Source: Escherichia coli (GTDB lineage: Bacteria > Pseudomonadota > Gammaproteobacteria > Enterobacterales > Enterobacteriaceae). From it: DNA of 64,000 bases. The position numbers were made by a program, and so were the translations under genes. The stretch is from assembly GCF_050920415.1 (NCBI RefSeq), contig NZ_CP169309.1; one strand, 5' to 3'. Shown here in pieces: positions 25,898-41,559 of this stretch. The first letter of the stretch is position 1; the number at the start of each line of letters is the position of its first letter. The notes beneath the pieces were generated by a model. The model was given only the letters and a program-made list of their open reading frames with translations, did not search any database and had not been told where the DNA came from.

Positions 25898-26830
25898 ATG
25901 TGGTCAGAATATTCACTCGAAGTTGTTGATGCGGTAGCGCGTAATGGTAGTTTTAGCGCTGCAGCCCAGGAGTTGCATCGCGTTCCTTCTGCGGTCAGCT
26001 ATACCGTGCGTCAGCTGGAAGAGTGGCTGGCGGTGCCGCTGTTTGAACGACGTCACCGTGATGTGGAACTGACCGCTGCCGGGGCGTGGTTTCTCAAAGA
26101 AGGGCGCTCTGTTGTCAAAAAAATGCAGATCACTCGGCAGCAATGTCAGCAGATAGCGAACGGCTGGCGCGGTCAGTTAGCTATCGCAGTGGATAATATT
26201 GTCAGACCAGAACGTACACGGCAGATGATCGTTGATTTTTATCGCCATTTTGATGATGTCGAACTTCTTGTCTTTCAGGAAGTGTTTAACGGTGTCTGGG
26301 ATGCGCTTTCCGACGGGCGCGTGGAACTGGCGATTGGCGCAACACGCGCGATTCCGGTAGGCGGTCGTTATGCCTTCCGGGATATGGGGATGCTAAGCTG
26401 GAGTTGCGTTGTTGCCAGCCACCACCCGCTGGCGTTGATGGATGGCCCGTTCAGCGATGATACGTTGCGCAACTGGCCGTCATTGGTGCGCGAAGACACC
26501 TCGCGAACGCTACCTAAACGTATTACCTGGTTGCTGGATAACCAAAAAAGACTTGTCGTGCCTGACTGGGAATCATCGGCAACCTGTATCTCGGCAGGAT
26601 TATGCATAGGGATGGTGCCAACACATTTCGCCAAACCGTGGCTTAATGAGGGGAAGTGGGTAGCATTAGAACTGGAAAACCCCTTTCCGGATTCGGCATG
26701 TTGTCTGACATGGCAGCAAAATGATATGTCGCCTGCGTTAACCTGGTTGCTTGAGTATCTCGGCGATAGTGAGACGCTGAATAAGGAGTGGCTGCGGGAG
26801 CCGGAAGAGACTCCCGCAACGGGTGATTAA
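25898..26830 (+). CDS. punR: LysR-family regulator PunR (YdhB)
   Basis: 310 aa; N-terminal HTH; divergent from punC. Confidence 0.9.
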
Positions 26831-27852
26831 CGACGATAGTCTCGGAACGGGCCGTCAGCCACGGAGCGGCGTTCAATCAAGCGCGGATGCACTTCAATGG
26901 ACTGCGGTTCTTCACGTTTGTTGACGATACGATCCAACAGCATGTTGAACGCTGTTTCACCCAGCGAATCTTTTGGCTGATGGATCGTGGTCAGCGCCGG
27001 CGTAAAATAGCGGGCGTTGCGCACGTTATCATAACCGATCAGCGAAACATCCTGCGGGACGCGCAGACCCATTTCATCAGCAGCACAAAGTGCGCCCATT
27101 GCCATGATATCGCCACCACAGAAGACGGCAGTAGGGCGATGCGGCTGCGACAGTATTTGCTGCATGGCGCGATAACCGGATTCAGGTTCAAAGTCACCCT
27201 GTACAATCCAGCTTTCCGGCACTTTGATCATCGCTTCTTCCATTGCCTTCATAAAACCGGCAAGGCGGCCTGCACCAGTGTTACGTTCCAGAGGACCGGG
27301 GATAACGCCGATTTCACGGTGACCACGTTCAATCAGATAACGCCCGGCCATGTAGCCGCCTTCAAACGCGTTATCAATGACTGCATCGGTAAAGTCTGCC
27401 TTTGCTTCACCCCAGTCCATCACCACCATTGGGATATGGCGATACTCTTCCAGCATCGCCAGCAGCGGCTCTGGGTACTCAGAACACATCACCAGCAGAC
27501 CATCGACGCGTTTTTGCGCCATCATCGACAGATAAGCCCGCTGTTTCTCAAGATTGTTCCACGCATTACCCAGAATCAGGGTGTAACCTTTCTGGAAGCA
27601 ATTTTTTTCAACCGCTTCAATGATCTCGGCAAAATAGGCCGCTTCGCTGCTGGTCGCCAGCAAACCGATAGACTTGGTGTGGTTAACCTTCAGGCTACGC
27701 GCCACCGCGCTAGGGGAGTAGTGTAATTCTTTAATCGCTGCCCACACGGCGTTGCGCGTTTCTTCAGCGACGAAACGTGTTTTGTTGATTACGTGTGACA
27801 CAGTTGTAGTGGAAACGTTTGCTCGTTTCGCTACATCTTTTATTGTTGCCAT
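26827..27852 (-). CDS. purR: purine repressor PurR (LacI family)
   Basis: 341 aa; [27 protein letters not shown]. Confidence 0.97.
27809..27824. promoter_or_regulatory. PUR-box-like operator inside the purR 5' coding region (ggaaacgtttgctc)
   Basis: AAACGTTT core; 88 bp from the upstream box, matching the known spacing of the two purR autoregulatory operators. Confidence 0.45.
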
Positions 27853-27896
27853 TCCATTTCACTCCAGACCCTAACTTCAGCTCCTGCAAAATCGCA

Positions 27897-27912
27897 AGGT
27901 AAACGTTTGCCT
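27897..27912. promoter_or_regulatory. PUR box (aggtaaacgtttgcct) in the purR leader
   Basis: Near-perfect 16-bp palindrome with AAACGTTT core, about 45 bp upstream of the purR start codon. Confidence 0.5.
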
Positions 27913-28150
27913 TTACACACCTTACGCACAACAAAAATGTTGCGGTACGCCGGAAAAACGACACGGAGCGTCAGGAAGGGGTCAATGGCCAGTACGCAAA
28001 TAGTGTAAGCGTGGAATTTTGGCCGATCTTGACGAAAAGGGGAAGTGGTAAAAACACTTATCATTATAAATGACGGGAGATTTTTTCATCACAGTGTGTA
28101 AAAATGCGTAATATCACTTTTTGTGTGGTAATAAAAAAGGAGAAAACTTG

Positions 28151-28240
28151 ATGAGCACCGACCTTAAATTTTCACTGGTAACAACAATTATCGTCCTCGG
28201 TTTGATCGTGGCCGTGGGTTTGACTGCCGCGCTGCACTGA
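28151..28240 (+). CDS. ynhF: small hydrophobic protein YnhF (29 aa)
   Basis: ATG with SD aaggagaaaa; encodes MSTDLKFSLVTTIIVLGLIVAVGLTAALH, a single transmembrane segment; below the ORF-track size cutoff. Confidence 0.7.
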   Translation: MSTDLKFSLVTTIIVLGLIVAVGLTAALH

Positions 28241-28405
28241 TTTCCTCTCGAGGGAGCGCGTTCTCCCTCGCATCTCCTTCCTGTTTGTTAGCAAAATGGC
28301 AAAAGTGTTTTCTCTTTTTGTTATTTTCATTTTTTTGTGATTGCTGTCATGCTTTCGCCACTTTAATGAATATCGCGTAATGACGCGAAGAGGTGGAGAT
28401 AAGGC

Positions 28406-41037: not shown

Positions 41038-41559
41038 ATGAAACGTTTTAGTCTGGCTATTCTGGCGCTGGTTGTTGCTACCGGCGCGCAAGCTGCCAGT
41101 GAAAAAGTCGAGATGAACCTCGTCACGTCGCAAGGGGTTGGGCAGTCAATTGGTAGCGTCACCATTACTGAAACCGATAAAGGTCTGGAGTTTTCGCCCG
41201 ATCTGAAAGCATTACCCCCCGGTGAACATGGCTTCCATATTCATGCCAAAGGAAGCTGCCAGCCAGCTACCAAAGATGGCAAAGCCACAGCGGCGGAATC
41301 CGCAGGCGGGCATCTTGATCCACAAAATACCGGTAAACATGAAGGGCCAGAAGGTGCTGGGCACTTAGGCGATCTGCCTGCGCTGGTTGTCAATAATGAC
41401 GGGAAAGCTACCGATGCCGTCATCGCGCCTCGTCTGAAATCACTGGATCAAGTCAAAGATAAAGCGCTGATGATCCACGTTGGTGGCGATAATATGTCCG
41501 ATCAACCTAAACCGCTGGGCGGTGGCGGTGAACGCTATGCCTGCGGTGTAATTAAGTAA
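41038..41559 (+). CDS. sodC: periplasmic Cu/Zn superoxide dismutase
   Basis: 173 aa from ATG at 41038 with SD ggaggt; signal peptide; His-rich metal ligands. Confidence 0.93.
   Translation: MKRFSLAILALVVATGAQAASEKVEMNLVTSQGVGQSIGSVTITETDKGLEFSPDLKALPPGEHGFHIHAKGSCQPATKDGKATAAESAGGHLDPQNTGKHEGPEGAGHLGDLPALVVNNDGKATDAVIAPRLKSLDQVKDKALMIHVGGDNMSDQPKPLGGGGERYACGVIK

Follow-up and report, generated by a model that had tools for sequence, protein, structure and literature searches.

The purR locus of Escherichia coli prompts one to ask whether a PUR-box-like element embedded in the coding sequence of a repressor gene is an operator for that same repressor, working alongside a second element in the leader, or whether it belongs to another regulator or merely reflects the protein that it encodes. 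We addressed this question in a 64-kb stretch of DNA, analysed over its whole length and referred to below as the window, for which a preliminary description had proposed such a pair of elements. The window belongs to the chromosome of E. coli: of 5426 complete genomes of this species, 5424 match a 601-bp piece around the two elements at an identity of at least 95%, and in the matched genomes this piece carries the annotation of purR and cydH. RefSeq names the gene 'HTH-type transcriptional repressor PurR' in 5424 of the 5426 genomes and likewise in MG1655 (b1658), around which the neighbours are arranged as they are in the window (punR, purR, cydH, ydhP and sodB). The purR start codon begins at 27852 on the minus strand, and the features discussed here are collected in Table 1.

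The genes on either side of purR show two further points of organisation. punR/ydhB (plus strand, 25898-26830) is convergent with purR (minus strand), and the 3' ends of the two genes overlap by 4 bp at 26827-26830. On the other side, a 29-codon ORF, MSTDLKFSLVTTIIVLGLIVAVGLTAALH, at 28152-28241 on the plus strand is the annotated cydH (ynhF), which encodes an accessory subunit of cytochrome bd-I and is divergent from purR. The pairing of cydH with purR is kept in 7 of 11 extra purR loci across Enterobacterales, where a YnhF-family ORF of 29 aa (six loci) or 27 aa (one locus) lies upstream.

Table 1. Coordinates of the purR gene, its two operators and the associated leader and promoter features, given as window positions.
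Feature	Position	Strand	Description	Evidence
purR CDS	26827-27852	minus	341-aa ORF, LacI/GalR-family purine repressor; regulated gene and source of the regulator	
O2, operator inside purR CDS	27809-27824	minus	sense GAGCAAACGTTTCCAC	sequence, matrix, wobble entropy, coordinates in PMC5110547 Table 4
Putative Shine-Dalgarno GGAG	27862-27865	minus	in conserved block GGTCTGGAGTGA, between O1 and ATG	assigned by inference
O1, purR operator (PUR box) in 5' leader	27897-27912	minus	sense AGGCAAACGTTTACCT	sequence, matrix, ChIP table, conservation
Conserved block upstream of O1, probable purR promoter region	27947-28044	minus		conservation profile and relaxed hexamer scan
Best conserved promoter candidate	28044-28039 / 28021-28016	minus	TTCCCC-17-CAAAAT	relaxed scan; fully conserved

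The leader element, O1, reads aggtaaacgtttgcct on the plus strand, and this string lies in the purR leader exactly at 27897-27912, where the preliminary description had put it. It occupies the interval from 45 to 60 nt upstream of the purR ATG, with its centre 52.5 nt upstream. The intragenic element, O2, covers nt +29 to +44 of purR, and its full 16-mer is gtggaaacgtttgctc on the plus strand. The range first proposed for it (27809-27824, inside purR) holds, but the string quoted with that range, ggaaacgtttgctc, is only 14 nt long and extends from 27811 to 27824. In the reading frame of the gene, O2 spans codons 10-15 (cGA GCA AAC GTT TCC ACt, encoding R10 A N V S T15), which form the part of the gene that encodes the turn in the helix-turn-helix of PurR itself. 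The centres of the sites, at 27904.5 for O1 and 27816.5 for O2, are 88 bp apart, in agreement with the spacing originally given.

How far such a pair could arise by chance depends on the string that is considered. The common core that had been pointed out, AAACGTTT, is present in both sites, but it is not rare in the window: the 64 kb hold three copies of this 8-mer where 1.87 would be expected, and by itself it is uninformative. Its third copy (41041-41048) was considered as a PUR box and rejected, as it belongs to codons 2-4 of sodC (ATG AAA CGT TTT) and has a poor matrix score. The longer string GCAAACGTTT, which O1 and O2 have in common on the same strand, was seen twice against 0.27 expected, a count reached in 5 of 100 shuffles. 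For a graded comparison we built a PurR matrix from 27 PurR ChIP-chip motifs (Cho 2011), with purR's own motif excluded, and scanned both strands of the window. O1 scored 21.5 bits, above the training median of 20.3, and ranked first among about 128,000 positions. O2 ranked seventh at 10.3 bits with the oriented matrix, a score equalled by about five unrelated sites of the 64 kb and lower than that of the weakest training site (11.85 bits); with a symmetrised matrix it reached 11.9 bits (training range 9.8-24.1). Set against the PUR box as a 16-bp imperfect palindrome resembling ACGCAAACGTTTGCGT with a central CpG, O1 shows 3 mismatches to the consensus, and O2 is a marginal example that retains the GCAAACGTTT core and the central CG. 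Judged by sequence alone, O1 is thus convincing and O2, which scores under the weakest training site, does not; it is the adjacency to O1 that makes O2 notable, the chance of a background site of its score lying within 100 bp of O1 being roughly 1.6% by arithmetic from the matrix scan.

Published data place the same two sites in the same positions. O1 and O2 are identical in sequence and position in E. coli K-12 MG1655 (NC_000913.3, 1737784-1737799 and 1737872-1737887, respectively), and the window differs from MG1655 by 2 substitutions in the 440 bp around the sites, neither of them in an operator. For the transcription unit of purR, the PurR ChIP-chip study (Cho 2011, PMC3159470, Table 1) prints the motif AGGTAAACGTTTGCCT, located at 1,735,808-1,735,823 in older coordinates; this motif runs from -60 to -45 relative to the ATG and has the same letters as O1. 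The PurR-bound region of that study, 1,735,528-1,736,095 in the same older coordinates, was seen only with adenine and spans O1 and O2, at a resolution too coarse to tell one from the other (PMC3159470). The study also reports PurR binding within the ORF at purB and purR, with elongation blocked (Cho 2011, PMC3159470). A GalR ChIP-chip paper (PMC5110547) lists GTGGAAACGTTTGCT and AGGCAAACGTTTACC at ynhF/purR, with GAGCAAACGTTTCCAC at 1737872-1737887, and states that these sites overlap with the operators for PurR described by Rolfes & Zalkin in 1990. The title of the latter work announces that two control sites are required and that they lie downstream of the promoter, and, to judge by this title and by citing papers, the work comprised PurR protection in vitro and mutational relief of repression. 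The preliminary description had read the pair as the known dual-operator autoregulation of purR and had pointed to PurR ChIP data for comparison. This reading is supported: the sites coincide with the MG1655 positions, with the Cho 2011 motif and with the PMC5110547 coordinates, O1 is itself printed as the motif, and the ChIP region covers both sites. Autoregulation of purR through two operators is already known, having been published in 1990, curated in RegulonDB and confirmed by ChIP-chip.

We consider it very probable that purR is mildly autorepressed by corepressor-bound PurR dimers that bind O1 and O2 independently, downstream of the promoter. PurR would act here as a dimer of the LacI/GalR family that binds its 16-bp PUR box only with the corepressor hypoxanthine or guanine, and the loaded repressor would occupy O1 in the transcribed leader and, at lower affinity, O2 at codons 10-15. 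With both sites placed downstream of the promoter, as the published title has it, PurR would obstruct escaping or transcribing polymerase instead of competing for the promoter, following the roadblock logic of purB. The two dimers would act independently and without a DNA loop, and the outcome would be a mild negative feedback on repressor synthesis. The original operator study is reported to have located O1 downstream of the transcription start but ahead of the start codon, with O2 in the coding region, and PurR binding was reportedly non-cooperative, with an affinity about six-fold higher for O1 than for O2 and with both operators contributing to an autoregulation of about 2-3 fold. The matrix ranking, in which O1 stands far above O2, agrees qualitatively with this reported affinity order. 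On the basis of secondary sources, O2 is probably identical, base for base, to purRo2. Against the account of two PurR operators it can be held that O2 falls under every training ChIP site and is equalled by five unrelated sites, and that Cho 2011 (PMC3159470) gives O1 as the sole purR motif and elsewhere calls the binding regions exclusively intergenic.

Conservation among relatives provides evidence on O2 that its matrix score does not. We collected purR loci from 80 species representatives, mostly of Enterobacteriaceae genera and with PurR 92-100% identical, which gave a comparison set of 81 sequences. O1 is present in 81 of 81 sequences at -57 to -60; in 57 it is identical, and the others differ at one or two outer positions, so that it stands out, at 95% conservation or more, from the variable leader sequence on either side of it. 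Of the 81 sequences, 79 keep the O2 core GCAAACGTTTCCAC. Residues 1-20 of PurR are invariant throughout this set, and the test of O2 therefore rests on synonymous positions. At codons 11-14 (GCA AAC GTT TCC) the wobble entropy is 0.10, 0, 0 and 0.10 bit, respectively, against a gene mean of 1.01 bit over degenerate codons. Values of 0.10 bit or less occur in only 4.4% of the degenerate purR codons, and codons 11-14 are the most constrained of 268 four-codon windows in the gene. Four consecutive frozen wobbles show selection on the nucleotide sequence itself at O2, and both operators are conserved beyond what their surroundings or coding needs would account for.

Positions at the edge of O2 and beyond it have patterns of their own. 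The Arg10 codon (27823-27825), whose third base is position 2 of O2, is CGC in 44 species, the rare CGA in 35 including E. coli, CGG once and the common CGT never. Outside the 16-bp site, the wobbles of codon 16 (27805-27807; ACA in 80 of 81) and codon 19 (27796-27798; TCA in 81 of 81) are frozen, possibly through an extended footprint, a constraint on mRNA or translation, or another site. For the reading of O2 as a PurR operator this calls for some caution, as wobble freezing close to the start, with codons 16 and 19 frozen too, may reflect mRNA or translation constraints.

A second repressor also has a claim on these sites. It is possible, though on balance doubtful, that O1 and O2 are GalR/GalS operators, either instead of PurR operators or in addition, through which galactose signalling would act, by way of the galactose repressor, on the expression of purR or on chromosome architecture. 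GalR ChIP-chip gave a peak at 1737880 with a score of 9.5, ChIP-qPCR at purR validated it, and both sequences were inferred there as sites (PMC5110547). Read on the plus strand, O2 (GTGGAAACGTTTGCTC) agrees with 11 of the 12 specified positions of the GalR consensus GTGNAANCGNTTNCAC and is the sole 11/12 match in 64 kb, where 0.19 would be expected; at O2, a consensus match coincides with occupancy, the latter taken from PMC5110547. O2 is closer to the GalR than to the PurR consensus, and its conservation could partly serve GalR, which counts against attributing that conservation to PurR entirely. However, little or no GalR-dependent change in the expression of these genes was seen (PMC5110547), and O1 fits only 8 of the 12 GalR positions yet is the top PurR site of the window. 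At the Arg10 wobble, moreover, 79 of 81 sequences have C or A and none has T, the base that would make the GalR palindrome complete, whereas C gives a better match to PurR. GalR binding would be an added layer that is compatible with control by PurR.

To see what the same codons look like at greater distance, we used a control set of 8 purR loci from other Enterobacterales families, with 79-83% protein identity to E. coli PurR (genera Erwinia, Pantoea, Providencia, Xenorhabdus, Hafnia, Pectobacterium, Serratia and Yersinia). All eight encode A-G-V-S in place of A-N-V-S, and their codons vary at each residue (GCG/GCA/GCT/GCC, GGT/GGC/GGG, GTT/GTC/GTA/GTG and TCC/TCG/TCA/TCT). No PUR box was found at the place of O2 in any of the eight Gly12 control loci, where scores ran from -23 to -0.5 bits. 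A weaker O1-like box of 7-13 bits, typically AGGCAAACGATTAACA, is present in 6 of the 8, at -60 to -62 in five loci and at -77 in Xenorhabdus; its left half-site is conserved and its right half divergent. The purR loci of Providencia and Serratia microhaemolytica lack an O1-like box. According to a review, the purR loci of Vibrio and Pasteurellaceae are without an autoregulatory site.

The presence of O2 follows the identity of one residue of the repressor. PurR residue 12 (codon 27817-27819), in the turn of the helix-turn-helix, is Asn (AAC) wherever O2 exists. Among the 120 homologues listed, all with at least 79% identity, it is Asn in 21, almost all of which have at least 87% identity, and Gly in 94; O2 is likewise present in two further Asn12 purR genes, whose identity is 80% and 90%. 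The change from Gly to Asn at this residue takes two nucleotide changes. A sequence with Asp12 (P0014), considered as an intermediate on a path from Gly through Asp to Asn, was disregarded, since it comes from a metagenome contig of 0.4x coverage without operators. As O2 is absent and its codons are free in the Gly12 loci, which keep a weaker O1-like box, O1 appears to be the older site and O2 a derived, Enterobacteriaceae-type one. In purR genes of that type the operator is spelled jointly by the Asn12 codon AAC and the frozen codons that flank it. A more speculative reading, possible but short of likely, is that O2 is lineage-specific and arose together with the Gly12-to-Asn change in the repressor's DNA-binding motif, that the site may have shaped the protein, and that it may cross-wire purine and galactose control. 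The mildly new point of this analysis is that the intragenic operator is limited to Asn12-type purR and tied to a residue change in the helix-turn-helix.

These lineages also bear on the view that O2 has no operator function, being a by-product of coding for the A-N-V-S-T turn, with autoregulation exerted by O1 alone. That view, which we regard as very improbable, would fit the score of 10.3 bits, lower than all 27 training sites, the report of O1 alone as a motif in Cho 2011 (PMC3159470), and the invariance of residues 1-20, which holds regardless of any operator. A constraint on amino acids, however, cannot freeze four successive wobbles at four- and six-fold degenerate codons in a gene whose mean is 1.01 bit, and the lineages with A-G-V-S vary the same codons freely. 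Two control sites are, moreover, required according to the title of Rolfes & Zalkin 1990, and PurR is reported in the purR ORF (PMC3159470).

The arrangement of the sites could also recall lac and gal, with one assembly bridging the 88 bp between O1 and O2, including the ribosome-binding site and the start codon, a reading that we find hardly credible. Two operators of one LacI-family repressor in the same orientation, about 88 bp apart and with GCAAACGTTT in common, do suggest it, and comparable spacings occur at gal (about 113 bp for OE-OI) and at lac (92 bp for O1-O3), but PurR is a 341-aa dimer without LacI's C-terminal tetramerisation heptads, and the spacing among species (88 bp in 52 sequences, 87 in 22, 86 in 4 and 85 in 3) implies a change in helical phase of about 100 degrees. 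This drift speaks against a loop that would depend on helical phase and favours PurR binding each of the two sites on its own, and the pair shows neither conserved helical phasing nor a bridging repressor.

We also looked at the surroundings from which transcription would reach the operators. A sigma-70 promoter scan of 27780-28260 on both strands returned no promoter. In a relaxed hexamer scan all plausible conserved candidates lie upstream of O1, and O2 is downstream of the promoter by virtue of being in the ORF. A strongly conserved stretch at 27947-28032 on the minus strand contains TTGACC (27985-27980) and the candidate -10 hexamer CAAAAT, the TTCCCC of the candidate -35 element falling just outside it; a weak terminator-like hairpin followed by a T run is found within the same stretch, at 27973-27959. 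Downstream of O1, conservation of the block GGTCTGGAGTGA, with its putative Shine-Dalgarno, is at least 95% across 80 distinct upstream sequences. The purR leader RNA folded no better than its shuffles (z = -0.63), which lends no support to a structured leader or attenuator.

The opposite strand of the leader carries a match to an Rfam family, RF02081 (STnc550), with 395 bits over 27853-28243 on the plus strand; it takes in the purR-cydH intergenic region and the cydH ORF, includes O1 and runs antisense to the leader of purR. In the entries of the Sittka 2008 supplement, STnc550 is a low-read candidate (6 and 10 reads) with the Northern listed as 'nd', its coordinates equal the bounds of the purR/sodB intergenic region, and its probe lies inside the cydH (ynhF) ORF. 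We considered and rejected a placement of O2 in the promoter of such an antisense RNA, given the low reads, the boundary coordinates and the probe in cydH in those entries. The match reflects how well the intergenic region and cydH are conserved and does not amount to a mapped antisense transcript; the STnc550 family is probably a region of the cydH mRNA and not an sRNA.

As a discovery, the operator pair carries little weight; what the analysis validates is a call first made from the sequence with nothing else at hand, the intragenic element included. The locus indicates that a functional operator may hide in a coding region at a background matrix score and that conservation at synonymous sites exposes such sites. 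The coincidence of O2 with the Gly12-to-Asn change offers a minor but testable instance in which a regulatory code and a protein code overlap.

Among known systems, the locus corresponds to purRo1/purRo2 of E. coli K-12 (Rolfes & Zalkin 1990, J Bacteriol 172:5758; Meng, Kilstrup & Nygaard 1990), with the same organism, gene, sequences and ATG offsets; we detect no difference between the two, each having one leader site and one coding site. The purB operator, described as a roadblock (He & Zalkin 1992), is likewise an intragenic PUR box at which PurR blocks elongation far downstream of the start, and purB and purR are named together in reviews and in Cho 2011 (PMC3159470). The two genes differ in that purB has one intragenic site deep in the gene, whereas purR, the gene of the repressor itself, combines an untranslated site with a second one at codons 10-15. 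The purB operator lies at about codons 62-67. The boxes of purF, purL, purMN, purHD, purC and purEK share with the purR sites the 16-bp ACGCAAACGTTTGCGT palindrome and corepressor-dependent binding of PurR; they overlap the -35/-10 elements, block initiation and give strong repression, in contrast to the purR sites, which probably lie downstream of the promoter and would give weak repression. GalR operators (GTGNAANCGNTTNCAC) are matched by O2 at 11 of 12 positions and both purR sites are GalR ChIP targets, but O1 suits PurR much better than it suits GalR.
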